From positions 29,007 through 93,006 of the forward strand of contig CAZHSY010000001.1 in NCBI GenBank assembly GCA_964535385.1: a DNA stretch of 64,000 nucleotides, written 5' to 3'. This DNA is from an uncultured Candidatus Saccharibacteria bacterium. GTDB taxonomy: Bacteria > Patescibacteriota > Saccharimonadia > CAILAD01 > GCA-016700035. Position numbers and translations under genes: made by a program. Shown piece after piece: positions 2,684 to 57,661 of this stretch. Position 1 is the stretch's first letter, and every line of letters begins with the position of its first letter. The notes under the pieces were generated by a model. The model was not told the DNA's origin, did no database searches, and was given only the letters and a program-made list of their open reading frames with translations.

Positions 2684-4039
2684 ATGTTGCGACACGTCAA
2701 AAAGCTCGTCCCCCAATCAGCCATCAATAGCTTTCATTACGTGGAAGCCCTAGCAGCTGACTTCGCCTACCGGCACCCGACCGGCAAGATGATCACAATC
2801 GGTATCGTTGGCAGCAAAGGCAAAACCACTCTAGCCAATCTTCTCTGGGCCAGCCTCTCCGGCGACGGCTCTAAAGTTGGGTTGGTTGGAACCGCCAATA
2901 TTCGGCTCGGTGACGACGAAGAAACCAACCCCTATCACATGACTATGCCTGGTCGGCACCGACTACAAAAAACCCTAGCGCGCATGGAAGCAGCCGGCTG
3001 TAGCTTTGCAATTCTAGAAGTGCCATCAGAAGGTCAGGCTCAATGGCGTCACGTTGGCGTACATTTTGATGTCTTAGTCTTCACCAACGTCACCCGTGAA
3101 CTCATGGCCAGCCACAATTACTCTCTCGAGATCCTCCATCAGCACAACCAACGAGTTTTTCATCAGTTTGCCAACTCTAAGACCAAAACACTTGAAGGTC
3201 GGGTTCAGCCAAAAATCCTGATCGCCAACGCCGATGCTGAACACTTCCCTACCTACTTCTCGCACCTTGCGGATATTAAGCGCAGCTATAGCGTGAAAGC
3301 CAAAAGTGACTATCAGGCTAAGTTCAAAACTGCCGACCATGCCGGCTCAAGCTTTGCGATTAATCAACAGACATACCATATCAATCTACCCGGCACCATC
3401 AATATCTCCAATGCCGCTGGCGCTATTGCAGCCGCCTTGGAGCTCGGCAAAACACCAGCCGCAATCGCCAAGGGTCTCAAGAATCTCGCCCAAGTAGCTG
3501 GTCGCATGGAGCGCATCGAAGCTGGTCAAGGCTTTACTGTTATCGTCGACTACGCTCACGAAGAAACTGGTATGGCCGCCCTCATGGAAAGCGCTCGACT
3601 CCTCGCTCAGTCATCAGCTCGAGTGATTACTCTACTGGGCGCCGAAGGTGGTGGTCGCGACGAGGCCAAGCGTCCAATCATGGGGCGGATCGCCATGAAA
3701 GGCAGTGACGTAGTAATCCTCACAAATGTTGATCCCTACTCTGACGACCCCGAAGCTATCCTGGACGACATTGCAGCCGGTGTCGAAAAAGCTGGTGGGA
3801 GACTCAATAAGACTTACTTCCGTATCGCCGATCGACGCCAAGGTATTCATCAAGCGTTAGCCCTCGCCAAAGCTGGTGATGTGGTTTTCATTACCGGCAA
3901 AGGCTCCGAGCAATCAATTATTATTGATGGCAAAAAATCAGCCTGGGATGATCGGCTCGTTGTCGCCGAAGAACTGACCACCCTAACCAGTCCCAGCACA
4001 AAAGCTAGTGGTGGCTCGAGGAATTCAAAAAACCGATAA
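2684..4039 (+). CDS. Mur ligase family protein (MurE/MurT-like, lacks N-terminal domain)
   Basis: 451 aa. P-loop IGIVGSKGKTT, typical of the Mur ligase central domain. A C-terminal Mur ligase domain is also present. Confidence 0.6.
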   Translation: MLRHVKKLVPQSAINSFHYVEALAADFAYRHPTGKMITIGIVGSKGKTTLANLLWASLSGDGSKVGLVGTANIRLGDDEETNPYHMTMPGRHRLQKTLARMEAAGCSFAILEVPSEGQAQWRHVGVHFDVLVFTNVTRELMASHNYSLEILHQHNQRVFHQFANSKTKTLEGRVQPKILIANADAEHFPTYFSHLADIKRSYSVKAKSDYQAKFKTADHAGSSFAINQQTYHINLPGTINISNAAGAIAAALELGKTPAAIAKGLKNLAQVAGRMERIEAGQGFTVIVDYAHEETGMAALMESARLLAQSSARVITLLGAEGGGRDEAKRPIMGRIAMKGSDVVILTNVDPYSDDPEAILDDIAAGVEKAGGRLNKTYFRIADRRQGIHQALALAKAGDVVFITGKGSEQSIIIDGKKSAWDDRLVVAEELTTLTSPSTKASGGSRNSKNR

Positions 4040-4744: not shown

Positions 4745-5115
4745 TTATCATCGATAGCGCAAACCTTGACGTCAACGAGACCTACTGCCAATGCTTGGCC
4801 TCGAATAAAATCCTCCGTCAATTCCGAATCTCTAGACAAGGTGGAACTTCGTTTGGGCCACGATACCCAAAGCTGCCCATCCATCTTGATAGCCCCAATC
4901 AACTCCTCAAACTGGTCGCTCAATTCGATACAGCTATGGACAAAAACCTGTAGAAAGTCTAGGCTCAACGGCTCTAGTTGATTGCAAAACTCAAGATCAA
5001 GCGGAAGCTCACCAAGCAATCGATCATAATTATCCGGCGGATTCTCAAACATCACGCTCGTCTGCGGCTTGATACCAAGCTTCTTCACTAATGGAGTTTG
5101 CGAGTAACCACTCAT
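4702..5115 (-). CDS. hypothetical protein
   Basis: 137 aa ORF. Its stop overlaps the start of the next gene at 5112, suggesting the two are coupled. Confidence 0.4.
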   Translation of the reverse strand: MSGYSQTPLVKKLGIKPQTSVMFENPPDNYDRLLGELPLDLEFCNQLEPLSLDFLQVFVHSCIELSDQFEELIGAIKMDGQLWVSWPKRSSTLSRDSELTEDFIRGQALAVGLVDVKVCAIDDNWSGLKLVWRKELR

Positions 5116-5813
5116 GTCTTCATTCTAAACTGTTGTCCCTGACGCACCAAGAAGCCTTCGTCTACAAGTTCCGTTAACGCTTGATTCTGAACTGTCGCAG
5201 TAAATCCTGGTAGAGCTTTGCTGGCTTCATCAGATGTAAAACCACCAGCCAGAGCCAGGTCCAAAAGCAAACCGCGTAGCTGACGATGAGAGCCCTCAAA
5301 ACGACTCTGACGAACATGATGTACACTCTGACGATTGGGGTTCTGAATGGTTTGCGCCAAATATGAACCATAGTCCATTAGCGCCCAATACCACTCGCGT
5401 GGCGACTGCCCCTCAAGACTCTTGGCTACCAGCGGTCGGATATCATTATCATGAACTTTTGTCTTCACGTTATGAAAACAATGATGAATAAAGACTCGCC
5501 GGATATTGGTCTCAATGAACACAGCCGGTTCGTTATAAGCGTAAGCCAAAATCGCTCCGGCGGTGTTGTCACCGATGCCTTTAAGGGCGACCAATTCCGC
5601 ATGAGTTCGCGGAAAAATACTATTTTTTTCGGTGACTATTTGCTCAGCAGCTTGCTGTAACCACAAAGCACGACGGTTGTATCCCAAGCCTTTCCAGAGA
5701 GCAATTACATCTGTAAAATTTGCATTCATCAGTATCTGTATGGTCGGGAACGTATACATAAATTGTTCATACTTAGGAATCACACGGCTGACTTGTGTTT
5801 GCTGCAACATCAC
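5112..5813 (-). CDS. HhH-GPD base-excision DNA glycosylase (endonuclease III-like)
   Basis: 233 aa. Helix-hairpin-helix motif LVALKGIGDNTAGAILAYA and an Nth/MutY-like fold signature. Confidence 0.7.
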   Translation of the reverse strand: MMLQQTQVSRVIPKYEQFMYTFPTIQILMNANFTDVIALWKGLGYNRRALWLQQAAEQIVTEKNSIFPRTHAELVALKGIGDNTAGAILAYAYNEPAVFIETNIRRVFIHHCFHNVKTKVHDNDIRPLVAKSLEGQSPREWYWALMDYGSYLAQTIQNPNRQSVHHVRQSRFEGSHRQLRGLLLDLALAGGFTSDEASKALPGFTATVQNQALTELVDEGFLVRQGQQFRMKT

Positions 5814-6071
5814 CTCGCTGACGAGTATGCTGTACGGCGAAATATCATGCCGCCACGGTAAGTCCCGCGCATGCTGACGTTAATAATCCCAAACCTCAGT
5901 CTGTAGTGCTTGGAGTTGTGGTGAGTTTGGCATGATAAGAAATTATACGCCAAACCACTAGCTCAGCAGCCTGTCGGGTGTGCTTCTCAGCAAAAATCCA
6001 GCTCTGTTCTCTAGGATAAACCTACCCGATTTAGCCTCCGAATTGGCCTGAAAATAGGTATAATAACTCTA

Positions 6072-7505
6072 ATGCGCGATCGAAATCGTGTTTCTAACAC
6101 TCCACACACACCATCAGCTAGCAAGGCCGGCACGCGTCCGACGAGTACTGCCCGGCCTGATTTCCTGTATGATCCACTAAAAGACCGGGGCTCACGCCGA
6201 GGTCTAAGCAGTATAGCTGGTAAACCAAAACGAACATGGTGGAAACGCATCATTGTAGTACTAGTCATCCTTCTCGCTCTCGGTGGCCTCAGCTTCTTAG
6301 CCTACACACTACGCAACGTCGTAAAAGTCGCCCCTAATTTCTTTAAGTTTGATCAGAAGCTCAAGGGCGAAGACGAGGGCCGGGTAAATATTCTTTTGCT
6401 CGGAGTTGGTGACCCTGGGCACGACGGTGCTCCCCTCTCGGATACGAACATCCTCGTAAGTATTAACACACGTGATCACCAGGTCGCTATGACCTCTATC
6501 CCGCGCGATACGCGCGTCAAGATCCCCGGCTATGGCAGTACAAAGATCAACAATGCCAATGCCTACGGTGGTGTCGACCTCGCTAAATCAACCGTTGAGG
6601 ACTTCTTGGGTGTACCGATCCAATACTATGTCAAAACCGACTTCACCGGCCTCAAGCAAGCAGTCGATGCTGTTGGTGGGGTCGACGTCGACAACAAAAC
6701 TCTGCTCTACGATTCCGAGTATCCTTGTGATAATAATCAGTGGCGGAGTTGTGGATTCAAGATGCAGCCTGGCAAACAACATCTCGACGGCACGACTGCC
6801 CTCAAATACGCTCGCTGTCGTAAGGGCACTTGCGGGGATGATTTCGGTCGAGCGGCTCGCCAACAAGAAGTCTTGACCCAGATCCGAACTCGAGCTGTCT
6901 CGGCTGGGACGATCCTAAATCCAGCTAAGCTAGCCGGCCTAATCCAAGCTGCCGGTGATAACATCAACACGGATTTGTCAGTTGGCGAAATGCTGCGGGT
7001 TAATGAATTAACAAAAGATATTCCAGCCGACCAATTCACGAACTTCGTACTGTCCATGGAGGATAATGGTTTTCTGAAAGCTGCGCCAGATGGCAGCTCC
7101 GATTTAGTACCAGTCGACGCCACCCTAAACGACCTTCATGCATTCGTAAAAGACATTTTTCGACTTGGTCCGATATGGAAAGAAGACCCGACCATCGTGA
7201 TTCAAAACGGTACCGCCACAGTCGGTCTCGGTGCCAAGCTGGAGAAAAAAATCACTAATACAGGACTACCCATTACCATCGCCGAGGTGACAAATGCCCT
7301 TTCCAGAGACCATGCTACGACTCAAATCCTGGACTACACCAATGGCAGCAAACCAAAGACCAAGGCTACACTTGAAAGCGCGCTAAAGGTCACCGCCATC
7401 GTGCCAGAAAATATACCCAAAGCTCCAGCTCAGGACTTCATTATCATCATCGGAACTGACTATGATAACTACCTTCCAACTCCTACCCCAACAAAAGTGC
7501 AGTAG
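6072..7505 (+). CDS. LytR-CpsA-Psr (LCP) family cell-wall polymer transferase
   Basis: 477 aa. N-terminal TM helix, then an LCP domain (NILLLGVGDPGHDGAPLSDTNILVSINTRD...IPRDTRVKIPGYG). Confidence 0.8.
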   Translation: MRDRNRVSNTPHTPSASKAGTRPTSTARPDFLYDPLKDRGSRRGLSSIAGKPKRTWWKRIIVVLVILLALGGLSFLAYTLRNVVKVAPNFFKFDQKLKGEDEGRVNILLLGVGDPGHDGAPLSDTNILVSINTRDHQVAMTSIPRDTRVKIPGYGSTKINNANAYGGVDLAKSTVEDFLGVPIQYYVKTDFTGLKQAVDAVGGVDVDNKTLLYDSEYPCDNNQWRSCGFKMQPGKQHLDGTTALKYARCRKGTCGDDFGRAARQQEVLTQIRTRAVSAGTILNPAKLAGLIQAAGDNINTDLSVGEMLRVNELTKDIPADQFTNFVLSMEDNGFLKAAPDGSSDLVPVDATLNDLHAFVKDIFRLGPIWKEDPTIVIQNGTATVGLGAKLEKKITNTGLPITIAEVTNALSRDHATTQILDYTNGSKPKTKATLESALKVTAIVPENIPKAPAQDFIIIIGTDYDNYLPTPTPTKVQ

Positions 7506-7546
7506 AGTTTTCGATGTTTGTTCGTCCTATTTGATATACTAAAACC

Positions 7547-8773
7547 ATGTCAAAGTCACCCCCTGACCACCGACTGCCAGAATTTCGCCCCTTAGCCGAC
7601 CGTTTACGTCCTCAAAAAGTTAGTGACATGGTTGGTCAAAGCCAAGTCATTGGTTCTGGCGGCTTTATTCGTCAGCTCATCGATAAGGGCGAGGCCACGT
7701 CACTTATATTCTGGGGCCCTCCTGGATGCGGCAAGACGACGCTAGCCCGCATCATTGCCCAATCTGGTGATTATCACTTCGTCGAGATCTCTGCCGTCAC
7801 AGCCAGCAAGGCTGACGTTGTCCGGGTGATCACCGAAGCCCGTGACATGCAAGCTTTGCGACAACGCACCCTGCTCTTCGTTGATGAAATCCATCGCTTT
7901 AATAAAGCCCAACAAGACGCCTTCCTGCCCGTCATCGAAGATGGAACCATCATTCTCATCGGTGCCACGACTGAGAACCCAAGCTTCGAGGTCATTAGCC
8001 CCCTTCTGTCTCGCAGTCGAGTAGTCGTCCTGGAGGCTATTCCTAAGTCGGCCCTACTTCGGCTCCTGCAACGGGCCGCCAAGACTTACCCAGAGTCTCA
8101 ATTTGAACCCACTGCCCTCAAGGCCCTGGCCGAGCTAGCCCAGGGTGACGCTCGCACTGCGCTTAATGGCCTCGAGACGGCCGTGCAAATCAGTCCTATG
8201 CATATCACACTCGAATCCATTAAGCAGGCCATGCAGCACTCGCTAGCTCACTACGATAAATCTGGCGAGTATCACTACAACACCATCTCGGCGTTCATCA
8301 AATCAATTCGCGGCAGCCACGTTGATGCCGCCCTCTTCTATCTCTTCCGCATGATCAAAGGCGGTGAAGATCCGAAGTTCATTGCTCGCCGCCTTATTAT
8401 CTTGGCTTCCGAAGATATCGGCATGGCGGCCCCTGCCGCACTCAACCTCGCCACGAGCTGCTTCATGGCCGTCGAGCGAGTTGGCTTGCCCGAATGTGAG
8501 TACACCCTAGCCCACACTACTATCGCGCTGGCTAAGGCGCCCAAAAGTCGAGCTGTTGCCGACGCCATGAGCCAGGCTAAGCAGTCGGTTAAGAGCCATC
8601 CGACCGCCGAGGTTCCGTTAGAACTACGCAACGCGCCAACACAGCTTATGAAGGACCTCGGCTATGGCAAGCATTACAAATGGCAGGCCAATTTTCAGGC
8701 TCCGAGTGGCTTCCTGCCAGAGGAAATAGGAAATAGCCGGTTCTATTTTGAGCCTAAAGAAGACAACGCTTAA
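7547..8773 (+). CDS. rarA: replication-associated recombination protein A (AAA+ ATPase RarA/MgsA)
   Basis: 408 aa. Walker A GPPGCGKTT, a Walker B motif, and the conserved C-terminal MgsA domain. Confidence 0.9.
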   Translation: MSKSPPDHRLPEFRPLADRLRPQKVSDMVGQSQVIGSGGFIRQLIDKGEATSLIFWGPPGCGKTTLARIIAQSGDYHFVEISAVTASKADVVRVITEARDMQALRQRTLLFVDEIHRFNKAQQDAFLPVIEDGTIILIGATTENPSFEVISPLLSRSRVVVLEAIPKSALLRLLQRAAKTYPESQFEPTALKALAELAQGDARTALNGLETAVQISPMHITLESIKQAMQHSLAHYDKSGEYHYNTISAFIKSIRGSHVDAALFYLFRMIKGGEDPKFIARRLIILASEDIGMAAPAALNLATSCFMAVERVGLPECEYTLAHTTIALAKAPKSRAVADAMSQAKQSVKSHPTAEVPLELRNAPTQLMKDLGYGKHYKWQANFQAPSGFLPEEIGNSRFYFEPKEDNA

Positions 8774-8837
8774 GCTTTAAAAATATGTCTCTGCCTGATA
8801 AGGTAGTACATATCCGAGACAAGGGCATCGACTTTAA

Positions 8838-8870
8838 GCCAGCTGCAAACCAGCTGGCTTTTTTGTTTGT
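8838..8870 (+). terminator. rho-independent terminator, bidirectional between rarA and the alkylation-repair gene
   Basis: Hairpin GCCAGCTG-caaac-CAGCTGGC followed by a T-run (TTTTTTGTTTGTT). Confidence 0.6.
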
Positions 8871-8884
8871 TCTGCAATGAGAGC

Positions 8885-9601
8885 CTACAGTTCGCCTTTA
8901 AGATAGGCTTGGCGGCGGTCGGGTCTAAAACGCTCAATCGCGTAACGCAATGTCGTCCGTGGTAGCGTCTTATAGCGATCGCCCTCGAGTAGCCAAGCCT
9001 CTTCGACTGCTTGATCAACTCGTTTGCCAACCTCGCGTAGCATCCAACCAACGGCTTTTTGAATTAAATCATGCGAGTCATGCGCCAACAGCGTAGCAAT
9101 ATGTAGAGCCGGTTCGGGATCACCGTTTTTTGTAAAATAAAAACACGCTAGCATCGCGATCCGACGATCCCATAGCCAGTCCGACCTAGCTAGTTCATCG
9201 AGTACCAGCAAATCAGTTTCAACCAGATGCCGGCCAACGATGTACTCAGCCGAGCAATCAACCAGGTCCCAATTATTAATATATTGGGTGTTACTGAGAT
9301 AGAAATCATAGACTCCCTGCCTCTCAAGCACACTCCCCTGCCGATAGAATTTCACTAGTATCAAGCAGGCCGCGAGGCGGCCTTCATGCCACTGACTGCG
9401 TAGGAGCTTCTGAAGTTCACCAAAAGTCATGCTCGAGACTGGTTTTACAATCGCTCGCACCACCGGAACTCGTACACCATAAAATTTGTCACCCTCGCCA
9501 TACTGGCCCGGACCAGTCTTAAAAAACCACGCCGAGGTCTCAGCCCGCTCCGGAGTGCCTTGGTCCTTCAGAGCCTGAGAGATATCCTGAGCCGTTGTCA
9601 T
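8885..9601 (-). CDS. DNA alkylation repair protein (AlkD-like HEAT-repeat glycosylase family)
   Basis: 238 aa with overall similarity to the DNA alkylation repair family. N-terminal MTTAQDISQALKDQGTPERAE... Confidence 0.65.
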   Translation of the reverse strand: MTTAQDISQALKDQGTPERAETSAWFFKTGPGQYGEGDKFYGVRVPVVRAIVKPVSSMTFGELQKLLRSQWHEGRLAACLILVKFYRQGSVLERQGVYDFYLSNTQYINNWDLVDCSAEYIVGRHLVETDLLVLDELARSDWLWDRRIAMLACFYFTKNGDPEPALHIATLLAHDSHDLIQKAVGWMLREVGKRVDQAVEEAWLLEGDRYKTLPRTTLRYAIERFRPDRRQAYLKGEL

Positions 9602-9688
9602 ACATGTAGCTTATCAGAAAAAAGTCGCCGCCTGAGAAAATCCCAGGCGGCGATATGCGGAGCAATAGCTAGTCAGCCATCGCTACCA

Positions 9689-10123
9689 TTACAAAGCCCC
9701 AATTGCCCCCTTCAGCTGATCGATGAAATAGCTGATCCCTGGTTCTTCGAGACGAGCCACCCAGCGCTTATCGATCTCAAGATCGACGTGATAGACCGGC
9801 TCGAGGCTGCCCGTGCACAGCAGCACTTGACCCCGCAGACCCCAGATCGAACCAACTCGGCCAATCAATCGTTCTCGCGCGGCACCCTCCAGGACACCGA
9901 TCACATTCAGTGTCTGAGCTCGAGTTAGCAGCATAGTAGCAGCTGGCCGTTCACTAGAGCCGAGCTCTACGCATCGATTCGGCCAATCACGAGGGAGGTA
10001 CTGGGTCGACAGCACAATTGAGCCCCGCCCAACTCGAGTGCTGAGGCACGGATGAGCCAGCGAAAATCCCTTTGGCTTGTCTTCGGATACAGGTAATACG
10101 ACTGTCTGTCCGGTCATCTCCAA
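9689..10123 (-). CDS. hypothetical protein
   Basis: 144 aa ORF. No motif recognised. Confidence 0.35.
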   Translation of the reverse strand: MEMTGQTVVLPVSEDKPKGFSLAHPCLSTRVGRGSIVLSTQYLPRDWPNRCVELGSSERPAATMLLTRAQTLNVIGVLEGAARERLIGRVGSIWGLRGQVLLCTGSLEPVYHVDLEIDKRWVARLEEPGISYFIDQLKGAIGAL

Positions 10124-10183
10124 CCTTTCATCAGAAAATGAGATGAAAGGTTATGCTAACACAAGCTGGCCTACCTTTCAAGA

Positions 10184-10657
10184 CTAGGCTTCGCCGCGCC
10201 GTTTAGCAAAATACTGTTGATGATAGCCCTCAGCTGGCCAAAATGTAGTCGCCAACACCACCTGCGTCACGATTGGCGCATCGTATTTTCCCGATTGATT
10301 CAGCTCATCTAAGATCTGCTTAGCCTGCACGTGTTGGTCTTCATTATGATAAAAAATCGCACTCCGATAGTTCTCACCGACGTCCGGCCCCTGTCGATTG
10401 AGTTGGGTCGGATCATGCTCGGCCATATAGCGACGTAGGAGATCCTCGTAACTCACAATTCCTGGATTAAACGTCACGCGAACTGTTTCGGCATGTCCGG
10501 TGATATGACTACAGACCTGAGCATAGGTTGGCTTGGGCTGTTCGCCACCCTCGTAGCCAACTTCTGTTTTGACTACTCCCGGCAGCTTAAGGAAGACGTC
10601 TTCGATCCCCCAGAAACAGCCGCCGGCGAAATCTGCTTGTGATAATTTCTTCGACAT
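10184..10657 (-). CDS. msrA: peptide-methionine (S)-S-oxide reductase
   Basis: 157 aa. Contains the GCFWG active-site motif. Confidence 0.9.
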   Translation of the reverse strand: MSKKLSQADFAGGCFWGIEDVFLKLPGVVKTEVGYEGGEQPKPTYAQVCSHITGHAETVRVTFNPGIVSYEDLLRRYMAEHDPTQLNRQGPDVGENYRSAIFYHNEDQHVQAKQILDELNQSGKYDAPIVTQVVLATTFWPAEGYHQQYFAKRRGEA

Positions 10658-14508: not shown

Positions 14509-15858
14509 ATGTCTTCAAATCGCCCATGGTCAGAATATCTATCCTCCGAGGCTCGTGATGACCAGAGTGACACTCTTGAACCCGAACTCGATGGTGAGCG
14601 CTATACTCGCTTAGCCCGAACAGTTGATACTTTGCGTGAAAATCCGATGCTTGCAAATATGGATCGTCAGTTAGCCCTTAAACTAGCTCGCATCATGTCG
14701 ATCTATACTGACACTCAGGCGGCCTGGGAACGTTATCAGACTCTCCAACCGTCTGTCCAAGATCAAGTCTTACCACTTAAGGGCTTAGATTTTGCAACTT
14801 TTGCTCATCTTCATAATGATATCCAAAACCTGGACTTAAGCGATATTGACCCATCTGATCGGCAAACGACGATTGGTAATATCGACAATAATCAAATCAA
14901 TCACTTAGAGACGGAACGCAGCCTAGAAACTATTCGTGACGACGGCCTCCATATCGAACTCGAGCCTGCACTCATTGATGATTTACGACAATTTGCCACC
15001 GAGACACCGCGCGAAGACTACCGGCGACGCCTCCCTTTAACTGAACTTTTCAAGAATGACAAGCGAGCTACCATCAATGGTTTAGCGAACTCTAAACTTT
15101 CACTCATAGCCCACGATGCCTTCGATCACATGTGGGGCTTCAATTTTGCGGAACAAACTGGCCTAAGTAACAAATATGCGGCTTTCTTCCAACAAATTGG
15201 CGATCCGGCCAAGACTGATATGTACAACCGACAATCAGAACTAGTGGCCACTACGCTCTTCGGCTATCGCCTCTTTAAAGATACGAATAATTCGTTCGAA
15301 CCAACCTTTGATATTGAAAAAGTTCACCGCGTCCTCAGCGCACAACAACTTCACCATCCCGAAGATTTTACTGTAAATCAAGCTGATGCTCTGGAGCTTA
15401 TCAACACCACCACTAACCCGCATGAGATTAGCTTGATTGGCTATAGTGTGAGTAATATCCATGATGAGATCGTCGAACAGCGGCGTAAACATGGCCGAAT
15501 TAAACTACTCGACGAACAAACCGGGGCTCCAGAGCGTGCAATGCGTACCCTCGAGCCTGAATACGTGGCTTTTGTTGTCGAAATGTTACATCAACTCTTC
15601 CAAAACGATCCACGCCTCCAACATGATCTGCTTGCTACTCAGGTTCTAACTGAACGCTATCTACACGAGATATCAGTCTCACCGCCTGGAAGCAGCGTCC
15701 CATCGCTAAAGCTTACACTCCAAGATATTCGTGATTGCGATCCATACGCTCCAGAACTACGCGAGGCTGGTCAAACCGATTGGTTTGTAGAGAACCCCGG
15801 TGCTCTCGCCAACAAGTATCGACCTCACGGCAGACCCGGTAACTTCTCCCCAGCTTAA
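14509..15858 (+). CDS. hypothetical protein
   Basis: 449 aa ORF. No motif recognised. Confidence 0.5.
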   Translation: MSSNRPWSEYLSSEARDDQSDTLEPELDGERYTRLARTVDTLRENPMLANMDRQLALKLARIMSIYTDTQAAWERYQTLQPSVQDQVLPLKGLDFATFAHLHNDIQNLDLSDIDPSDRQTTIGNIDNNQINHLETERSLETIRDDGLHIELEPALIDDLRQFATETPREDYRRRLPLTELFKNDKRATINGLANSKLSLIAHDAFDHMWGFNFAEQTGLSNKYAAFFQQIGDPAKTDMYNRQSELVATTLFGYRLFKDTNNSFEPTFDIEKVHRVLSAQQLHHPEDFTVNQADALELINTTTNPHEISLIGYSVSNIHDEIVEQRRKHGRIKLLDEQTGAPERAMRTLEPEYVAFVVEMLHQLFQNDPRLQHDLLATQVLTERYLHEISVSPPGSSVPSLKLTLQDIRDCDPYAPELREAGQTDWFVENPGALANKYRPHGRPGNFSPA

Positions 15859-16628
15859 TGCTTCTGCGCATCCTTCATGAGCGTATGAGCCGCAATCTTT
15901 GCTATGCCATGTAATTGCCGAAAAGCCGCCGCTATTTGAGGTGATTCTATAAGCACTCCAATCGTCTCTTCAGCATACGAAATGATTGCTGTCTTATCAC
16001 CATAAGTGTAAATATTGACTGGCTCGTTATAGGCCTCGCGTGGCAACCAAGCCATGTCCCGTCCTAAACGTTCGTCATTCTTTTTTGCATACCGCATCAC
16101 ATCTTCTTCAGCTGGTTCGATGCCATGGACTCCTAGGCCAAGCTCGTGACGTTTTTCAATGAATTTATAGAGCTGCTCACCAAGCAGGTTATTATCACCA
16201 TCTGACCGAATGAAATAGACATCCTTGGCAGTCCGGAGCTGATCGCGATACATGTCTAAAATCCCTTCTTTACCCTCAAAGTAGCGTACCCCTGGTCTGT
16301 TTTGATAGGTGTAGAAATAATTCAAGAGCGCCGGCATGCTGGCCTTCACCTGTTGCTCAGCCTGATGCACTTCCTTGCGGCGTTTCTCCATAAGCCTCTC
16401 GAGAGCGATTGGATTCTCCACCTCATAGGCTAATTTCTTGCCAATTTTATTGCGCTTCACCAGATTCAGCTCCTCGAGTCGCTCGAGGACGGTGTAAGCA
16501 TTGGTACGAGTTTCACCCGTGCGATCAGCTAGGGCTGGTGGGGTCATCTGTCCACCTTTAATCAGCTCCAAGTAAAGCCTCGCCTGTGATGATGTTAATC
16601 CAAGCTGTAATAACGTATTTTCATTCAT
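15855..16628 (-). CDS. TrmB-family HTH transcriptional regulator
   Basis: 257 aa. N-terminal winged helix (LGLTSSQARLYLELIKGGQMTPPALADRTGETRTNAYTVLERLEELNLV) typical of TrmB-like regulators. Confidence 0.6.
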   Translation of the reverse strand: MNENTLLQLGLTSSQARLYLELIKGGQMTPPALADRTGETRTNAYTVLERLEELNLVKRNKIGKKLAYEVENPIALERLMEKRRKEVHQAEQQVKASMPALLNYFYTYQNRPGVRYFEGKEGILDMYRDQLRTAKDVYFIRSDGDNNLLGEQLYKFIEKRHELGLGVHGIEPAEEDVMRYAKKNDERLGRDMAWLPREAYNEPVNIYTYGDKTAIISYAEETIGVLIESPQIAAAFRQLHGIAKIAAHTLMKDAQKH

Positions 16629-16699
16629 TTTGTCGGATTCATTACGACATTTATTATATAGAGTTTACAGATATGATACAACTTTTTAACTTTTCTATA

Positions 16700-16728
16700 T
16701 TGACATTTATATAATATTCTGCCATAAT
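16700..16728 (+). promoter_or_regulatory. sigma70-like promoter of the hammerhead-punctuated operon
   Basis: TTGACA, a 17 nt spacer, then CATAAT, in an AT-rich spacer. This is followed by a GC-rich leader ending in CGACAGAAGGAG and then the ATG at 16801. Confidence 0.55.
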
Positions 16729-16800
16729 GCACAAGGTCAAGGCATAGCGCCAAAACCCGGGCAGCGACGCCCGCCCGCACCCCGACAGAAGGAGAGCACC

Positions 16801-17064
16801 ATGCCCACCGCCACATCGCCCGAAGTCATCGAGGAATGGTACGAGGAGGAGAGTAACTCCGACTTCATCATCGTCAACTACCCTCTGGACGAGAGCTCAT
16901 CAGCAAGATGGACTCTCTACAGCGAGAGCGACGATGAAGAGTTCGGCACCTGCTACACCTACATCCACGACCGCACCTACGACAACTGTCCGGAAGGATG
17001 GGAGATGTGGGGAGCAGACCCGGATGAGGGTGGCTGGGACATGCCGGACTCTTGGTATGACTGA
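16801..17064 (+). CDS. highly acidic small protein (possible DNA-mimic/anti-restriction-like)
   Basis: 87 aa, extremely rich in D/E/W/Y (EEWYEEESNSDF, SESDDEEFG, DPDEGGWDMPDSWYD). About 60% GC. Confidence 0.5.
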   Translation: MPTATSPEVIEEWYEEESNSDFIIVNYPLDESSSARWTLYSESDDEEFGTCYTYIHDRTYDNCPEGWEMWGADPDEGGWDMPDSWYD

Positions 17065-17114
17065 GAGGAACTTCTCCGCTCCGGGAGGGCGGCGCACAAG
17101 CGCCCCTCCCCACC

Positions 17115-17170
17115 CCGACTCGGCCGAATGACGGCCCTGATGAGCTCACCGCAAGGTGGACGAAAGTCAG
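17115..17170 (+). ncRNA. candidate type III hammerhead ribozyme (copy 1)
   Basis: The element reads cCGAC-UC | GGCCG-aauga-CGGCC | CUGAUGA | GCUCACC-GCAA-GGUGGAC | GAAA | GUCAG. The cleavage triplet is CUC. Stem II carries a GNRA loop. It is preceded by a small hairpin at 17091-17104. Confidence 0.6.
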
Positions 17171-17190
17171 CCGCACCCCGAAAGGAAAAA

Positions 17191-17403
17191 ATGACGGACT
17201 ACGAGGCCCAGGCAAGAGCCGCAGAACTGCGCGGACAGGCAGAAGCCGCTAGGCTGCGGGCACGAGCCCTCGAAGAACAGGCTGCGCAACTTCTCCACAG
17301 CAGTAACGCGCCAATTCAGCCAGGGCAACACAAGTGCGAATGCTCAAGATGCGAAGTACCCTGGGGAACAATCGCCGACGCCTACGCGTCGCCTCGCATC
17401 TAG
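17191..17403 (+). CDS. small coiled-coil/Cys-motif protein
   Basis: About 70 aa. Start ATG is 8 nt after GAAAGGAAAAA. Sequence: MTDYEAQARAAELRGQAEAARLRARALEEQAAQLL...HKCECSRCEVPWG. The track ORF 17128.. starts inside the ribozyme and is probably too long. Confidence 0.45.
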   Translation: MTDYEAQARAAELRGQAEAARLRARALEEQAAQLLHSSNAPIQPGQHKCECSRCEVPWGTIADAYASPRI

Positions 17404-17423
17404 GCTCTGGCCGACAAGGTTCC

Positions 17424-17501
17424 GGGGCGTCCTTCCAAAACGCCCCCTGACTCGCGGGAACAGTCCCGCCTGATGAGCCCGGTCACCCCTGCGAAAGTCA
17501 G
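17424..17501 (+). ncRNA. candidate hammerhead ribozyme (copy 2) with upstream protective hairpin
   Basis: GGGGCG-uccuuccaaaa-CGCCCC hairpin, then CUGAC-UC | GCGGG-aacagu-CCCGC | CUGAUGA | gcccggucaccccugc | GAAA | GUCAG. The core boxes and stems I and III are conserved, but stem II pairs poorly in this copy. Confidence 0.5.
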
Positions 17502-17529
17502 CCCGCACCTCGACAGAAGGAGCAAGTAC

Positions 17530-18126
17530 ATGAGCAACGTTGTGATCCCCGACGGTCGCGAGATCTACATCTCGGTCGACATCGAAGCCGACGGGCCGAT
17601 TCCCGGCGACTACTCGATGGTCTCGCTCGGCGCCAAAGTCATCGGCTACGGCGAGGAGGAGTTCTACGCCGAACTGGCTCCGGTCAGTGACAACTGGGTC
17701 CCAGAGGCTCTGGCTGTCAGCGGCTTTAGCCGCGAAAAGACGCTCACCTTCCCCGACGCAGCCACTGAAACCACCCGATTTGAGGGCTGGCTCGATGGAC
17801 TCTACGCCCAGCACACCACCCTCTACGGTGGCAAGTGGGTACTCTTCCCCAAGCTGGTCATGGTCGGCTTCAATGCCCCCTTCGACTGGAGCTTCGTGAA
17901 CTGGTACCTGCACCACTTCGCTGGCCGCAACCCGCTCGGTATCAGTGCCCTGGACATCAAAGCGATATACCTCGGCCTGACCGGTTGCAACTGGGGTGAG
18001 ACCAGCATGCGGCGACTGCCTGCCGAGCTCCGACCGAGTGATGGCTTGAGCCACAACGCCCTCGAGGATGCTCGCGATCAAGGTCGCATGTTCGAGCAGC
18101 TCATGGCGCGGCTCCAAGCTAACTAG
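17530..18126 (+). CDS. DEDDh-family 3'-5' exonuclease (DnaQ/RNase T/oligoribonuclease-like)
   Basis: Start at AAGGAGcaaguacATG. Exo I motif SVDIEADGP, Exo II-like FNAPFDWSFV, Exo III HNALEDARD (H-x4-D). About 199 aa. Confidence 0.65.
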   Translation: MSNVVIPDGREIYISVDIEADGPIPGDYSMVSLGAKVIGYGEEEFYAELAPVSDNWVPEALAVSGFSREKTLTFPDAATETTRFEGWLDGLYAQHTTLYGGKWVLFPKLVMVGFNAPFDWSFVNWYLHHFAGRNPLGISALDIKAIYLGLTGCNWGETSMRRLPAELRPSDGLSHNALEDARDQGRMFEQLMARLQAN

Positions 18127-18140
18127 GCAAACAAGGTTCC

Positions 18141-18221
18141 GGGGCGTCCTTCCAAAACGCCCCCTGACTCGGCGAGTAATGCGCTCGCCCTGATGATGAC
18201 CACCGCTAGGTCGAAAGTCAG
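18141..18221 (+). ncRNA. candidate hammerhead ribozyme (copy 3) with upstream hairpin
   Basis: GGGGCG...CGCCCC hairpin, then CUGAC-UC | GGCGAG-uaaugcg-CUCGCC | CUGAUGA | u-GACC-accgcua-GGUC | GAAA | GUCAG. Confidence 0.6.
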
Positions 18222-18249
18222 CCGCACCTCGAAAAAAAGGAGCAAACAG

Positions 18250-18849
18250 ATGAAGAAAATCGTCCTAACTGGTGGCCCTTGTGCCGGTAAGACCAGCGTC
18301 GTACAGGCAGTCCAGCAGCACTTCGGCGAGGTCGTCAGCTTCGTACCCGAGGTTGCAACTATGCTCCTCTCAAGTGGCTGGCCCTTGCCCGGTCGCGATA
18401 TCGACTGGACTCCCAACTGGCGCGACACCTTCCAGCGAGCCATTGTCACGACCCAGCGAGAGCTTGAGGATGCCTACGAGCTAACTGCCCGGCAACACGA
18501 CCAGCAACTCTTGTTGACTGATCGCGGCATCATGGACGGCGCCGCCTACCACCCGAGCAATCGGGCTTTTCTTGAAGCCACTAACACCGATCACGAGGCA
18601 GCATTGAGCCGCTACACAGCCGTTGTTCATCTCGAATCAATCGCCGTGGCCAATCCCAGTCTCTATTCGCGGGGTAACAATCCCTACCGGTATGAGGACT
18701 TGGACGAAGCCATTTCCCTGGAGGCGGCCACCCGCCGAGCCTGGCTGGATCATCCACAACACGTCGTCATTGAAGGTGATGATCTGACCCACAAGACTCA
18801 GACTGTATTACAGCTCATCCAGGAGGTACTCGACAACGATTCACTCTAA
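18250..18849 (+). CDS. P-loop NTPase, AAA_28/NadR-type nucleoside-kinase-like
   Basis: Start at AAGGAGcaaacagATG. Walker A LTGGPCAGKTS. About 199 aa with a compact kinase-like architecture. Confidence 0.6.
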   Translation: MKKIVLTGGPCAGKTSVVQAVQQHFGEVVSFVPEVATMLLSSGWPLPGRDIDWTPNWRDTFQRAIVTTQRELEDAYELTARQHDQQLLLTDRGIMDGAAYHPSNRAFLEATNTDHEAALSRYTAVVHLESIAVANPSLYSRGNNPYRYEDLDEAISLEAATRRAWLDHPQHVVIEGDDLTHKTQTVLQLIQEVLDNDSL

Positions 18850-18857
18850 AAGGTTCC

Positions 18858-18936
18858 GGGAGGTCCTTGCAAAACCTCCCCTGACTCGGCCGAATGACGG
18901 CCCTGATGAGCTCACCGCAAGGTGGACGAAAGTCAG
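18858..18936 (+). ncRNA. candidate hammerhead ribozyme (copy 4) with upstream hairpin
   Basis: GGGAGGU-ccuugcaaa-ACCUCCC hairpin, with compensatory changes relative to copies 2 and 3. Then CUGAC-UC | GGCCG-aauga-CGGCC | CUGAUGA | GCUCACC-GCAA-GGUGGAC | GAAA | GUCAG. The core is identical to copy 1. Confidence 0.65.
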
Positions 18937-18963
18937 CCGTACCTCAAAAAAAGGAGCAAGTAG

Positions 18964-19437
18964 ATGTCCGAGATCGAACGCAAGTGGCGCCTGGATGATG
19001 TACCGGGACGGCTTCTCCGCAACGTCACCCCACAATTACTCCAGCAAAGCTACCTCATCGTAGCTCCTGACGAACTCCGATTGCGTAGTGATGGTGAGCG
19101 CAACTGGCTGACAGTCAAATCTGACGGTAAGCTCACTCGAGAAGAATGGGAGGTCGAACTACCAGACTGGGCCTACCGACAGCTCGCAATATCGGCTCCA
19201 TACAGCCTCGAAAAGCGCCGCTACCCAGTGATGGTCGAGGGACGCGTCTGGGAAGTCGATATCTACTCAGGGGCTCTAGCTGACTTGATCACTGTCGAGG
19301 TCGAGGTGGCCAGTGAAGCCGAGGCCCAAACTCTAGGCCTACCAACATGCTTCGGACACAGCCAAGAGGTCACCGACGATAGTCGCTACAAGAACAAACG
19401 ATTGGCCGTCGACGGACTACCTGGCACTGACGAGTAA
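18964..19437 (+). CDS. CYTH-domain protein (triphosphate tunnel metalloenzyme; class IV adenylate cyclase/triphosphatase family)
   Basis: 157 aa. The N-terminal MSEIERKW carries the ExExK signature of CYTH domains. Later acidic motifs (EVDIY, VEVEVASE) are consistent with the tunnel fold. Confidence 0.65.
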   Translation: MSEIERKWRLDDVPGRLLRNVTPQLLQQSYLIVAPDELRLRSDGERNWLTVKSDGKLTREEWEVELPDWAYRQLAISAPYSLEKRRYPVMVEGRVWEVDIYSGALADLITVEVEVASEAEAQTLGLPTCFGHSQEVTDDSRYKNKRLAVDGLPGTDE

Positions 19438-19443
19438 GGCCAC

Positions 19444-19497
19444 GATCCCGAAGCGTTAACATTAATGCGCTTCGGGATCTCAACTTTTTACTTTTTC
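19444..19497. terminator. bidirectional rho-independent terminator (end of ribozyme operon; convergent msrB)
   Basis: GATCCCGAAGCG-uuaacauuaau-GCGCUUCGGGAUC followed by TCAACTTTTTACTTTTTC. Confidence 0.7.
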
Positions 19498-19880
19498 TTC
19501 AGATCCAAGCTAGCCGAATTAATACAAAACCGCTGCCCTGTAGTCTCCTTCGGTCCGTCCTCAAACATATGTCCAAGGTGGGCTCCACACCGACTACAAA
19601 CTACCTCTGTGCGATGCATACCATCCGAGTCATCTGTGCGCATCACAATACTACCTGGCACGGCCTGGTCGAAGCTTGGCCAGCCACTCACCGACTCAAA
19701 CTTATGCTCACTACCAAAGAGCACTTGTCCGCAAACCTTACAGGTATAGGTGCCGTCGGTGTGCTCATCCCAGTACTTACCTGTAAACGGCGCCTCTGTC
19801 CCCGCCTTCTGGGTAATGTCATACTCTTCGGGTGTTAGGCGCTCTTTGAGCTTTTCACGGTCAACCTTATACTGAGTCAT
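19488..19880 (-). CDS. msrB: peptide-methionine (R)-S-oxide reductase
   Basis: 130 aa. CxxC...CxxC zinc motif and RCGAHLGHMFEDGP active-site region. Confidence 0.9.
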   Translation of the reverse strand: MTQYKVDREKLKERLTPEEYDITQKAGTEAPFTGKYWDEHTDGTYTCKVCGQVLFGSEHKFESVSGWPSFDQAVPGSIVMRTDDSDGMHRTEVVCSRCGAHLGHMFEDGPKETTGQRFCINSASLDLKKK

Positions 19881-19994
19881 TACCTTCTCCTTTTGTACTA
19901 CAATACCCCTTCTGCAACAGATACGAAATCATTGACTTTATCAATATTTGATGCTATTATACAAAAAGCACCTACCACCCCCTCAGGAGGGAAA

Positions 19995-20537
19995 ATGAGC
20001 ACAAGCACGGGTACCGAACTCGAGGTGGTCCGAAGGACCGTCCTCGAACACACCACCTACTACGACCACACCACCGGGCGCCCCATCACCGACCGCATCA
20101 ATCTTGCTGGACGCATCTCCTCCGAGATCGTCAAGCGCGACATGAGCATCGAGGACGCCCTGACCTGCCTGGAGACTCTGGGCACCGTCAAAAGTGCCAA
20201 CCTCACCGCGGTGATGCGGCTGGCTGATACCGGTTTGCCACTTCTCAACGTCCATCATCTCTTCGCCTTCTGCGATGAGCTGGCCGTGCCAGTCGACTTC
20301 GGTCGTGACTGGCTGCGTTTCTTCGCAGTCGAACTGGCAGACGAGGATGAGATAACCAACGCCATCATCATGGCAGAGGGTCTCATTCAGAAGCTCCGTG
20401 ACACCGAGCGAGATCCCATCCAGCAGAAGATCAATCATGACCGCGACAACACGAGCTTCCTCTCGGAAGTCCGTTTGCTCGCCGAGCAGCGACAGATCCT
20501 GGTCCTCGAGACCCTCTGCGACGAATTGATGATCTGA
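19995..20537 (+). CDS. hypothetical protein (high-GC)
   Basis: Likely start MSTSTGTELEVV, 7 nt after GGAGGG. The track ORF starts earlier, at 19893, in AT-rich sequence. The stop overlaps the next gene's start (TGATGA). Confidence 0.45.
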   Translation: MSTSTGTELEVVRRTVLEHTTYYDHTTGRPITDRINLAGRISSEIVKRDMSIEDALTCLETLGTVKSANLTAVMRLADTGLPLLNVHHLFAFCDELAVPVDFGRDWLRFFAVELADEDEITNAIIMAEGLIQKLRDTERDPIQQKINHDRDNTSFLSEVRLLAEQRQILVLETLCDELMI

Positions 20538-21442
20538 TGACCATCAAGAACCCGTTCAACGAACTGGGGCTCGCCCCGGCGGCCGTCAAGGCCGCTGGGT
20601 ACGAGCGCTGCATGGACTTGGCGCAAGCCATGTACCGGCAGATGTCGAAGTATCGACACCCTGACGTTGGTGGATCTGCCAAGAGCTTTGCAGCCCTCGA
20701 GGAGGCCATGCGCTTCCTCGAGGATCCGAGTTTGCGGAAGGAGTTCTACGACGAATATGTTGGCAAGTTGGGTGAAGCCCGACTACAGCAGGTTCGTGAG
20801 CAGAATGACTCCCTCAAGCTGGAGCTCAACATGGTTCGAGAGCGACTTAGTCAAGCTATCGGCGCGCCTTTCTCACCAGGTTCCATCCAAAACCTGACGC
20901 CGGGCACACTGCTGCTCATCTCGGATCACCCTGACTGGATCCTCTTGCGAGCCGATGAGGCTGGCGTGACGATGCAGTACCTCGAGGAAGGTGAGGCCAA
21001 GCGCCAAACCGCCCTCTGGGATAATCAGGGTACCGGCAGGTCATTCATCGTGACTCACACCCAACGAGCTTTCCACTGGGATCAAAGCAAGATCACCAAG
21101 GCTGAGGCTGGCTTCTGGCTGGCTGCACCAGCCGGTGAGACCAAGACCCAGTACCTGGCTCGGCTCGAACCCATTGGCAAAGCCGTAGCGGTTCCGTTCG
21201 ACCTGATCGCTTGTCTAGGATACAGTGTCGTAAACCGCAATACCGCTGATACGCAGAGGGCGCTGAATGCCAGCGTTATGCCACGTAGCGGAGTCGGCGC
21301 AGCCGCACTTTCGGACAGCAGTGCCCAGGCACTGAGTTTCCGTCCGGAGCTCGGCGCGACGCTGATCATCTCTCGGTATGCCGACGCGCGAACTTTCCAG
21401 CCCCTGGGCACCATCCAGGGCGGGCTGATCCCACAGCCATGA
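20537..21442 (+). CDS. J-domain (DnaJ-like) protein
   Basis: N-terminal NPFNELGL...AYRQMSKYRHPDVGG includes the HPD tripeptide of J domains. 301 aa, high-GC. Confidence 0.55.
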   Translation: MTIKNPFNELGLAPAAVKAAGYERCMDLAQAMYRQMSKYRHPDVGGSAKSFAALEEAMRFLEDPSLRKEFYDEYVGKLGEARLQQVREQNDSLKLELNMVRERLSQAIGAPFSPGSIQNLTPGTLLLISDHPDWILLRADEAGVTMQYLEEGEAKRQTALWDNQGTGRSFIVTHTQRAFHWDQSKITKAEAGFWLAAPAGETKTQYLARLEPIGKAVAVPFDLIACLGYSVVNRNTADTQRALNASVMPRSGVGAAALSDSSAQALSFRPELGATLIISRYADARTFQPLGTIQGGLIPQP

Positions 21443-52194: not shown

Positions 52195-52287
<93 letters not shown>

Positions 52288-57660: not shown

Positions 57661-57661
57661 C

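Follow-up and report, generated by a model that had tools for sequence, protein, structure and literature searches.

The DNA analysed here, in the following called the window, is a stretch of 64,000 nucleotides from an uncultured Candidatus Saccharibacteria bacterium (contig CAZHSY010000001.1, positions 29,007 to 93,006), which carries at positions 16801-19437 a ribozyme-punctuated operon of five genes, g1 to g5. This locus is a conserved chromosomal site occupied by a shuffling, compositionally foreign array of gene cassettes: at least 12 Saccharibacteria loci possess an array that is rich in guanine and cytosine (GC), punctuated by ribozymes and located beside an orthologous TrmB regulator. 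Neither a single acquisition event nor a uniform housekeeping operon describes the array, because the site is conserved, gene content and order vary, the similarities of its genes are incongruent and its GC content lies above that of the genome. An earlier sequence-only reading of this DNA had regarded three of the five genes as nucleotide-handling, and profile, Protein Data Bank (PDB) and fold matches bear this out for g3, a DEDDh exonuclease, g4, an AAA_28 P-loop protein, and g5, a CYTH protein. Each enzyme comes from a known family; what is new is the putative orphan Cap18 exonuclease, the apparently split pair of AAA_28 and CYTH, and the array, ribozyme-punctuated and TrmB-linked, in which they are placed. 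The functional reading favoured here, held tentatively, is that of an accessory, conflict-related module, which would clear or recycle small nucleotides and oligonucleotides instead of making a signal.

A cassette array at a TrmB-linked chromosomal site

Related arrays were collected by several routes. A hammerhead-pattern scan with one genome per species resulted in 76 loci, of which eight, on seven contigs, belong to Saccharibacteria or Saccharimonadia. Each of the seven contigs encodes a TrmB ortholog beside the hammerhead(s), and each but the short L032 (loci are denoted by L numbers) shows an array of GC-rich, hammerhead-separated genes. Further arrays were found via an AAA_28 homolog (L086), via a metagenome scan (L090-L096) and via a CYTH protein (L003). 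In L003 a TrmB ortholog (73% identical to that of the window) is followed by a GC-rich unknown gene, one hammerhead and then CYTH and AAA_28; a 188-amino acid (aa) protein upstream of CYTH was considered as a diverged exonuclease and rejected (BLASTP E = 0.16). A TrmB ortholog, 49-85% identical to the one in the window, adjoins every related array, and the array GC is above the genome GC in every case.

The recurring cassettes encode the exonuclease (Exo), the AAA_28 protein, the CYTH protein, a 'MRIVxQG' zinc-ribbon protein, a coiled-coil protein ending in ...DSMDPD...W and a 188-194-aa Cys-rich protein. Of ten further cassette proteins taken from related arrays, only a cytidylate kinase in L086 could be assigned to a Pfam family. 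Exo, AAA_28 and CYTH occur together in six arrays (window, L016/L076, L046, L060, L086 and L090), and both gene order and gene sets vary between arrays. The TrmB regulator of the window is closest to those of L092 (85%) and L060 (84%), with the L086 ortholog at 59%. The cassette similarities disagree with this order, as the window AAA_28 protein is 60% identical to that of L086 and 34% to that of L060, while for the window Exo the identity is 59% with L060 and 36% with L086. This suggests that cassettes were exchanged, lost or reordered between arrays, and it is solely from such incongruent similarities that their mobility is deduced.

The composition of the locus is likewise distinct. GC amounts to 0.58-0.62 across 17-19 kb compared to ~0.50 in the flanks, and GC at third codon positions (GC3) to 0.59-0.79 in the five genes (0.75-0.79 in g1 and g3) compared to 0.43-0.58 in most of the flanking genes sampled. 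The proposal that the package was acquired horizontally therefore holds with respect to its atypical GC and GC3, but not as a single recent acquisition, since the genes recur reshuffled at the TrmB-linked site of the related loci. A common operon of matching GC in related genomes, which would have spoken against acquisition, was found in its first half only: the operon is common and its GC is mismatched in every relative. The setting is chromosomal, with the housekeeping genes msrB, PGI and GroEL flanking the locus, and window and L086 share the order of a 449-aa open reading frame (ORF), TrmB, the array and then PGI and GroEL. A prophage origin of the whole locus was rejected, as housekeeping synteny is kept on both sides and no phage structural genes are present at the ORFs examined.

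Two further observations concern hammerheads of other loci. At 3002-3062 (+), L087 carries a type III hammerhead that looks different, its stem III being AU-rich and its stem I CUCGAG. Downstream of it lie a weak Csx3-like gene and an AAA_28 gene, the product of which is 45% identical to g4; bAvd-like, TrmB-like and large DEAD-box helicase genes are nearby, and L087 may represent another flavour of the arrangement. The 68 non-Saccharibacteria loci of the pattern scan (L010-L085) have one hammerhead each, of the same subtype (GACUCG...CUGAUGA...CGAAAGUC), and come from Paraburkholderia, Bradyrhizobium, Planctomycetes, Acidobacteria and further genomes. No relatives of the five window proteins are encoded at these 68 loci.

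Hammerhead ribozymes at the cassette junctions

Four type III hammerhead ribozymes fill the four intergenic gaps of the operon, and a pattern search found none elsewhere in the 64 kb. The full hammerhead pattern was matched three times with 0.00 matches expected by chance and the core pattern four times with 0.32 expected. Rfam was insensitive: at gathering thresholds it reported tRNAs only and no ribozyme in the window, and at permissive thresholds Hammerhead_3 reported copy 2 alone (29.8 bits, E = 0.0012, below the gathering score of 48.5), so that the ribozyme calls are based on the pattern searches and on stem covariation across relatives. The catalytic core and the UC cleavage site are invariant in all 32 hammerhead variants compared, which come from the window and its relatives and include one nested partial match; compensatory substitutions are found in stems I, II and III (e.g., CUGAC/GUCAG, CCGAC/GUCGG, CCUGA/UCAGA). 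The features of type III hammerheads, i.e., a core CUGAnGA...GAAA, cleavage after UH, three stems and loops closing stems I and II, are present in the four window copies and ~28 copies of relatives.

All four junctions (17065-17190, 17404-17529, 18127-18249 and 18850-18963) are built alike, with a GC-rich hairpin abutting stem III, the ribozyme and a conserved leader CCGCACCYCGA...AAGGAG. Hammerhead cleavage is predicted to split the operon transcript into single-gene mRNAs. The GC hairpin would thereby form the end of each upstream mRNA, and each downstream mRNA would open with the folded ribozyme, followed by the common leader with its ribosome-binding site. Literature searches on hammerheads with Saccharibacteria or Patescibacteria, and a search combining hammerhead, operon and CYTH, returned nothing relevant.

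Identical or near-identical hammerhead pairs exist within single arrays, i.e., 17115-17170 and 18881-18936 in the window, 5645-5697 and 6342-6394 in L086, and 4884-4939 and 5291-5346 in L078. In the short-read contigs L001 and L002, the assembly ends right at the hammerhead repeat, 54 nt upstream of CYTH. Recombination between the repeats could plausibly reorder or delete cassettes, and the repeats also cause such assembly breaks. A more far-reaching proposal, regarded as speculative and rather unlikely, is that of an integron-like, RNA-punctuated array at a fixed TrmB-controlled site. In this proposal, the hairpin-hammerhead junctions would be both mRNA processing signals and recombination handles for swapping phage-derived nucleotide-immunity genes, such as the captured Cap18 and the split kinase-triphosphatase. 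If true, the module would let epibionts, or elements in them, quench oligonucleotide immune signals.

A putative orphan Cap18-type exonuclease

Sequence comparison places g3 in the Cap18 family, which is known as 'Exo' in the cyclic oligonucleotide-based antiphage signalling system (CBASS). It matched the PADLOC 'Exonuclease' model PDLC00753 over its full length (E = 8.3e-57, model positions 5-180 of 184) and E. coli Cap18 (PDB 7T2S) with E = 1.8e-37 and ~45% identity over 172 aa. Its motifs DIEAD, NAPFDW and HNALEDA align with the same DEDDh motifs in 7T2S, and the next match among PDB sequences was a marginal DnaQ (8H18, E = 0.023). The match to Pfam RNase_T was below cutoff (E = 0.011) and NCBIfam gave nothing useful. 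More than 5000 g3 homologs exist. Two of them were sampled for their context, P0164 (51% identical) and P0193 (49%), and both lie inside type III CBASS operons with the gene order SMODS CD-NTase, bacterial HORMA, TRIP13-like AAA, Exo and PNP-SAVED effector. The sequence-only reading had pointed to a family acting on very short oligonucleotides in immune signalling, and the Cap18 assignment by PADLOC and 7T2S agrees with this.

It was reported that the Cap18/Exo clade spares ordinary DNA, RNA and cyclic GMP-AMP (cGAMP) and instead selectively clips 2'-5'-linked linear dinucleotide intermediates and oligonucleotides, 2'-5' oligoadenylate among them, into mononucleotides, which keeps cyclase signalling below threshold; the activity was described for the enzymes from V. 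cholerae, S. marcescens and E. coli in a 2025-26 preprint (bioRxiv 10.1101/2025.03.04.641389). The Pro and Val residues equivalent to P18 and V58 of the S. marcescens enzyme (SmExo) appear to be conserved in g3. Within the window, g3 would be an orphan (stray) Cap18: neither the operon nor the ten large unassigned ORFs scanned in the window yielded a SMODS/CD-NTase, HORMA, TRIP13, SAVED or effector gene. The set as a whole matches no named defence system, as had been suspected, with PADLOC matching the exonuclease only. A CBASS regulator outside any CBASS operon and in an obligate epibiont lineage is a setting in which repurposing as a counter-defence or clearing enzyme could occur.

A NeuTTM-type CYTH protein

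Although g5 barely passes the Pfam CYTH cutoff (23.7 bits, cutoff 23.2), it matched the PDB entries 2FBL and 3TYP of NeuTTM with E = 6e-22 (5.8e-22 for 2FBL) and ~40% identity. The ExExK signature is present as EIERK at residues 3-7 (EIERKW), and in the alignment to NeuTTM, SYL stands with GYL and VKSDG with LKSEG, which keeps the positions of the Tyr-28/Lys-52 dyad (numbering from PMC3440374). It also matched phrog_6660 (E = 1.5e-16), and its nearest relatives outside the arrays are located on orphan-rich, phage-like contigs and in jumbo phages. NeuTTM is a specific inorganic triphosphatase with a Tyr/Lys catalytic dyad and without cyclase activity, while class IV adenylate cyclases form a small, separate cluster within the CYTH superfamily (PMC3440374; PMC8233210). 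Accordingly classified, g5 is predicted to be a NeuTTM-type triphosphatase.

The sequence-only reading had left cyclase and triphosphatase activity side by side for the CYTH fold; the fold and the triphosphatase type are supported, whereas among PDB sequences at E ≤ 1 only NeuTTM entries and no class IV cyclase structure were matched. A role of g5 as class IV adenylate cyclase was therefore rejected on sequence, in view of the separate cluster of these cyclases. A cyclase role is unlikely, and with it the making of a second messenger, which had been considered for the operon. This bears on the possibility of a self-contained signalling or defence system, in which the CYTH protein would make the signal as a class IV cyclase-like enzyme, AAA_28 would sense it or act as effector, and Exo would set the threshold. 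The membership of class IV adenylate cyclases in the CYTH superfamily (PMC3440374; PMC8233210), the role of Exo as threshold regulator in CBASS (bioRxiv 10.1101/2025.03.04.641389) and the presence of restriction-modification, bAvd and Csx3-like genes near the array in L003 and L087 would be in line with such a system. It is nevertheless considered very unlikely, given the similarity of g5 to the cyclase-inactive NeuTTM with its dyad positions kept, the missing cyclase match, and the finding that PADLOC gave no convincing match for g4 or g5 and that no effector-type domain was detected.

An AAA_28 protein with a predicted kinase fold

The P-loop protein g4 passes the Pfam AAA_28 threshold clearly (E = 2e-24, 87.1 bits against a cutoff of 27). 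Its Walker A motif is GGPCAGKT, and the GGPxxGK, PE and DRG motifs are invariant in the family, which is consistent with a phosphotransferase. It belongs to a large stand-alone family of ~200-aa proteins without characterised member. As a search of PDB sequences gave only spurious RuvB-like P-loop matches, structure prediction and a fold search were needed. With the AlphaFold model (predicted local distance difference test, pLDDT, 93.5), Foldseek ranked thymidylate kinase (2PBR, 4DWJ) and human deoxycytidine kinase on top, with probability 1.00 and template modelling (TM) scores of 0.6-0.72. The model thus predicts a kinase of thymidylate/deoxycytidine-kinase fold with a substrate-binding lid. 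A resemblance to NadR/AAA_28 proteins had been proposed, of which AAA_28 stands and NadR was not recovered by sequence: no NadR chain was among the PDB sequence matches at E ≤ 1, and NCBIfam gave no match to a NadR model.

Coupling of AAA_28 and CYTH

A scan of viral contigs (IMG/VR) with an AAA_28 alignment yielded 26 loci. In 20 of these, AAA_28 and CYTH are the two domains of one 356-403-aa protein, and in two others they are encoded by neighbouring genes, i.e., L102 (284 kb, a jumbo-phage contig with a tail-sheath gene near the pair) and L103 (91 kb), with identical matches. Among the Saccharibacteria arrays, L003, L076 and L060 have the CYTH and AAA_28 genes next to each other or overlapping, and no ribozyme separates the two. 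The fusion is strong evidence that g4 and g5 would act on a common substrate, and the two proteins are interpreted as the probable halves of a two-domain enzyme, which is a single polypeptide in many IMG/VR contigs. AAA_28 and NeuTTM-type CYTH proteins are both large families without known physiological role, and the fusion gives a handle on the substrate they share. The CYTH literature notes fusions to 'nucleotidyl kinase' domains in general (PMC3440374; PMC8233210), and a literature search on AAA_28 with CYTH found no paper mentioning the combination.

The exonuclease does not take part in this coupling: no Exo gene was found near AAA_28/CYTH in any of the 26 viral loci. A tblastn search of GenBank phage records found Exo in four, CYTH in nine and AAA_28 in none, and no record contained the trio. 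The sequence-only reading had suggested looking for a conserved synteny of CYTH, AAA_28 and DEDDh genes; the three occur together in the six Saccharibacteria arrays, and in phages the AAA_28-CYTH pair alone is conserved. As a separate observation, L108 encodes within 4923-10341 an AAA_28-CYTH fusion (4923-6092) and, downstream of it, a cytidylyltransferase, a TilS-like PP-loop protein and a protein with a GH25 lysozyme domain, and some 'viral' contigs with the fusion may include bacterial chromosome.

The ribozymes themselves suggest another task for the enzymes, namely RNA-end processing, with the kinase acting on 5'-OH ends, the CYTH protein acting as RNA 5'-triphosphatase and the exonuclease trimming 3' ends. 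Hammerhead cleavage generates 5'-OH and 2',3'-cyclic phosphate ends, and the enzymes accompany ribozymes in every array. The triphosphate-tunnel superfamily furthermore includes Cet1-type RNA triphosphatases (PMC3440374; PMC8233210). Set against this, no hammerhead was found near the viral AAA_28-CYTH fusions, g4 resembles small-molecule kinases and not Clp1/PNK polynucleotide kinases, g5 is of the NeuTTM and not of the Cet1 type, and the ribozymes flank every cassette regardless of its product. Such a link to the ribozymes is thus judged highly improbable.

Function of the enzyme module

In the tentatively favoured reading of an accessory, conflict-related module, the three enzymes would jointly process small nucleotides. 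The exonuclease g3 would clip short 2'-5'-linked oligonucleotides into mononucleotides, as reported for its family, while g4 and g5 would reset how these or related nucleotides are phosphorylated, or else take away tri(poly)phosphate. Acting together, the three enzymes would clear or recycle short oligonucleotides, which may be 5'-triphosphorylated or 2'-5'-linked. This role is favoured because the exonuclease derives from an immune regulator family, because all three enzyme types also occur in phages, because the array varies, is atypical in GC and encodes many tiny orphan proteins, and because Saccharibacteria do encounter phages, including host prophages (PMC13578794). The persistence of the trio in six arrays, though single genes are distant versions of each other, supports a joint role. 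In line with a conflict-like character, the nearest CYTH relatives beyond the arrays belong to orphan-rich, phage-like contigs and to phrog_6660, and hammerhead clusters known from elsewhere flank prophage genes such as the anti-restriction gene ardA (PMC3088659).

Several findings weigh against this interpretation. Neither the operon nor the 10 large unassigned ORFs scanned in the window gave a PADLOC match to a CD-NTase or another signal synthase, and the 2'-5' specificity of the Cap18/Exo family goes back to one preprint (bioRxiv 10.1101/2025.03.04.641389). The substrate-stacking aromatic residue (F120 in the V. cholerae enzyme, VcExo) may be Leu in g3, with an uncertain residue mapping. 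The three genes are separable, as L078, L091 and L096 encode Exo only, L092 CYTH only, and L003 CYTH and AAA_28 without Exo. Finally, the chromosomal and syntenic locus with its housekeeping neighbours and one conserved regulator, and the cytidylate kinase cassette of L086, fit plain nucleotide salvage.

Nucleotide salvage for an auxotrophic epibiont, with no link to immunity, is the main and a serious rival, which is regarded as possible though not likely. Here, Exo would break down oligonucleotides that are imported or left over to mononucleotides, AAA_28 (with the cytidylate kinase) would re-phosphorylate them and CYTH would remove toxic tripolyphosphate. Besides the two points just mentioned, the predicted thymidylate/deoxycytidine kinase fold of g4 agrees with salvage, as do the phosphoribosyltransferase gene and the Formyl_trans_N-domain gene next door in L003. 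Saccharibacteria are not known to synthesise nucleotides de novo, which also counts for salvage. CYTH enzymes have moreover been placed at the interface of nucleotide and phosphate metabolism, with a role in 'metabolite proofreading' (PMC3440374; PMC8233210). A salvage operon would however be expected to be uniform and matched to its genome, while the arrays vary in content, are GC-atypical everywhere and disagree in their similarities with TrmB. Close relatives are few, with ~12 clusters in the 57-64% identity band of g3, six in the 58-64% band of g4 and 18 CYTH relatives in all, which suggests a patchy distribution. The g3 relatives whose contexts were examined are immune-operon Cap18 enzymes and not Orn- or Nrn-type nanoRNases, and half of the cassettes encode tiny orphan proteins.

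The separability of the genes raises the question whether there is any joint function. The TrmB-linked site could be an insertion hot spot for unrelated, ribozyme-bounded cassettes that act independently, which would explain the arrays with partial gene sets, the varying gene order and the absence of Exo beside AAA_28-CYTH in the viral loci; the near-identical ribozyme copies within arrays would favour the recombination needed. This is considered improbable, since all three enzymes are found in six independent arrays despite the replacement of single genes by distant versions, and since AAA_28 and CYTH are demonstrably linked by fusion.

Small cassette proteins

For g1 and g2 no match was found in Pfam, NCBIfam, PHROGs or PADLOC. 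The acidic and aromatic composition that had been noted for g1 is evident, with 24 Asp/Glu, 2 Lys/Arg and 15 aromatic residues, an isoelectric point of 4.05 and a net charge of ~-22. It was this composition alone that had led to the idea of a DNA mimic; g1 agrees with Ocr/ArdA-type mimics in charge and may be one. Its single-sequence structure model (pLDDT 55) was too poor for a fold search. An exhaustive homology search (1.84 billion representatives) returned low-complexity acidic matches and one real partial relative, the 66-aa acidic protein P0260, which shares the C-terminal 33 aa of g1 at 70% identity (...NCPEGWExWG...GGWDMPDSWYD). P0260 is encoded by the first cassette after TrmB in L129, where a hairpin and a hammerhead follow. 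Thus, g1 appears to be array-specific and nearly an orphan.

The second protein, g2, is of the length, coiled-coil character and Cys-richness (CECSRC) that had been described. A clear relative is an 80-aa protein encoded in the L046 array, with 70% identity across 33 aa (E = 7e-11, from a small database), and weaker coiled-coil matches are present in other arrays.

Otherwise unrelated cassette proteins were observed to end in similar acidic/aromatic tails. In the 160-aa protein of L060, the 98-aa protein of L046 and the 213-aa protein of L016 the tail reads ...R(R)EDSMDPD...W, and in g1 (window 17000-17064) and P0260 (L129 562-762) ...GGWDMPDSWYD. These tails could be a shared docking or targeting motif.

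Operon layout and surroundings

The five plus-strand ORFs were confirmed from the ORF list, in agreement with the earlier description of the gene content and of the DIEAD, HNALEDA, GGPCAGKT and EIERKW motifs. The starts of g2 to g4 were corrected, as the longest ORFs reach back into the upstream ribozymes, and the ATG preceded by an AAGGAG Shine-Dalgarno sequence was chosen (Table 1). It is well supported that the five genes form one transcription unit under a single sigma-70-type promoter beside the divergent TrmB regulator. The candidate promoter lies in the gap between TrmB and g1 and is the sole good plus-strand promoter match within 16500-19600; an equivalent AT-rich region precedes the first cassette in L003 and L129. 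The leader of g1 is of the same sequence type as the leaders after each ribozyme, but no ribozyme is located ahead of g1. The terminator-like hairpin between g5 and the convergent msrB gene was read directly from the sequence; a terminator scan did not report it because its loop is 12 nt long.

Table 1. Position and properties of the operon genes, regulatory elements and ribozymes in the window.
Feature	Position	Strand	Properties
TrmB-family transcription regulator	15855-16628	-	257 aa, divergent from the operon; Pfam TrmB E = 4.9e-10
Sigma-70-like promoter TTGACA-17-(TG)CATAAT	16700-16728	+	11/12 positions, extended -10 TG; putative function
Leader and ribosome-binding site of g1	16770-16800	+	CCGCACCYCGA..AAGGAG..ATG (alignment A1)
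g1	16801-17064	+	87 aa, very acidic, aromatic-rich
Hammerhead ribozyme 1, type III	17115-17170	+	core CUGAUGA...CGAAA, stems I, II, III; GC-rich hairpin ahead at ~17083-17109
g2	17191-17403	+	70 aa, coiled-coil N-terminus, Cys-rich C-terminus
Hammerhead ribozyme 2, type III	17447-17501	+	hairpin ahead; pattern match, compensatory stems
g3	17530-18126	+	198 aa, DEDDh exonuclease, Cap18/CBASS-'Exo' family
Hammerhead ribozyme 3, type III	18164-18221	+	hairpin ahead; pattern match, stems
g4	18250-18849	+	199 aa, AAA_28 P-loop, nucleoside/nucleotide-kinase fold (predicted)
Hammerhead ribozyme 4, type III	18881-18936	+	one base different from ribozyme 1
g5	18964-19437	+	157 aa, CYTH/triphosphate-tunnel enzyme, NeuTTM type
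Terminator-like element	19444-19497	+	12-bp hairpin (GATCCCGAAGCG / CGCTTCGGGATC) followed by T-rich runs; putative function

In the surroundings of the operon, the 449-aa ORF at 14509-15858 (+) adjoins TrmB, has no Pfam or PADLOC match and occupies the same position in L086 (449 aa) and L095 (67% identical). Two ORFs with overlapping stop at 19893-21442 (+), of 214 aa (no family) and 301 aa (weak DnaJ match), show a GC3 of 0.69; as the array of L086 runs directly into PGI, this block may be missing there and may have been inserted in addition between array and PGI. Further downstream, a cluster of seven tRNA genes is located at 51493-57748; one of them, at 56369-56428, is a match of 60 nt (42 bits), which is unusually short for a tRNA.

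Comparison with known systems

The exonuclease g3 shares the DEDDh family, length and motifs with the CBASS enzymes, i.e., Cap18 of E. coli upec-117 (7T2S) and the V. cholerae and S. marcescens enzymes. In contrast to these, it has no CD-NTase, HORMA/TRIP13 or effector partner and is encoded in a ribozyme-bounded cassette beside a kinase and a triphosphatase. With the AAA_28 family (NadR/Ttd14-type) and the thymidylate/deoxycytidine kinase fold, g4 has in common the Pfam threshold, the Walker A, PE and DRG motifs and the predicted fold, but it is without detectable sequence similarity to NadR and the solved kinases. The CYTH protein g5 is of the same size as NeuTTM (Nitrosomonas europaea NE1496) and resembles it in identity, ExExK signature and Tyr/Lys positions. 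While NeuTTM is encoded by a stand-alone gene, g5 is genetically coupled to an AAA_28 kinase, to which it is fused in other genomes. The plant proteins AtTTM1/2 are P-loop kinase-CYTH fusions, in which a kinase-like P-loop domain is likewise tied to CYTH; the window differs in having separate genes with a ribozyme between them and a kinase domain of the AAA_28 and not of the uridine-kinase type.

As an analogy only, the array can be compared to integron cassette arrays, which also have a fixed platform, one promoter, variable and mostly promoterless single-gene cassettes with structured repeats in between, and a cassette order and content that differ between relatives. Unlike integrons, arrays of the window type are without integrase or attC sites, and their repeats are ribozymes acting at the RNA level.

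The closest precedent for the ribozymes are the prophage clusters described by Perreault et al. 2011, in which several hammerheads per polycistronic unit flank varied single genes, including the anti-restriction gene ardA in A. tumefaciens, and cleave in vitro (PMC3088659). Clustered hammerheads, described so far in prophage operons, here organise a conserved yet shuffling cassette array in Saccharibacteria, which makes the role of ribozyme processing in operon expression directly testable. In contrast to the prophage clusters, this array is located at a fixed chromosomal site with a TrmB regulator conserved across a phylum-level lineage, and arrays of its type possess a recurring enzyme repertoire and uniform hairpin-ribozyme-leader junctions.

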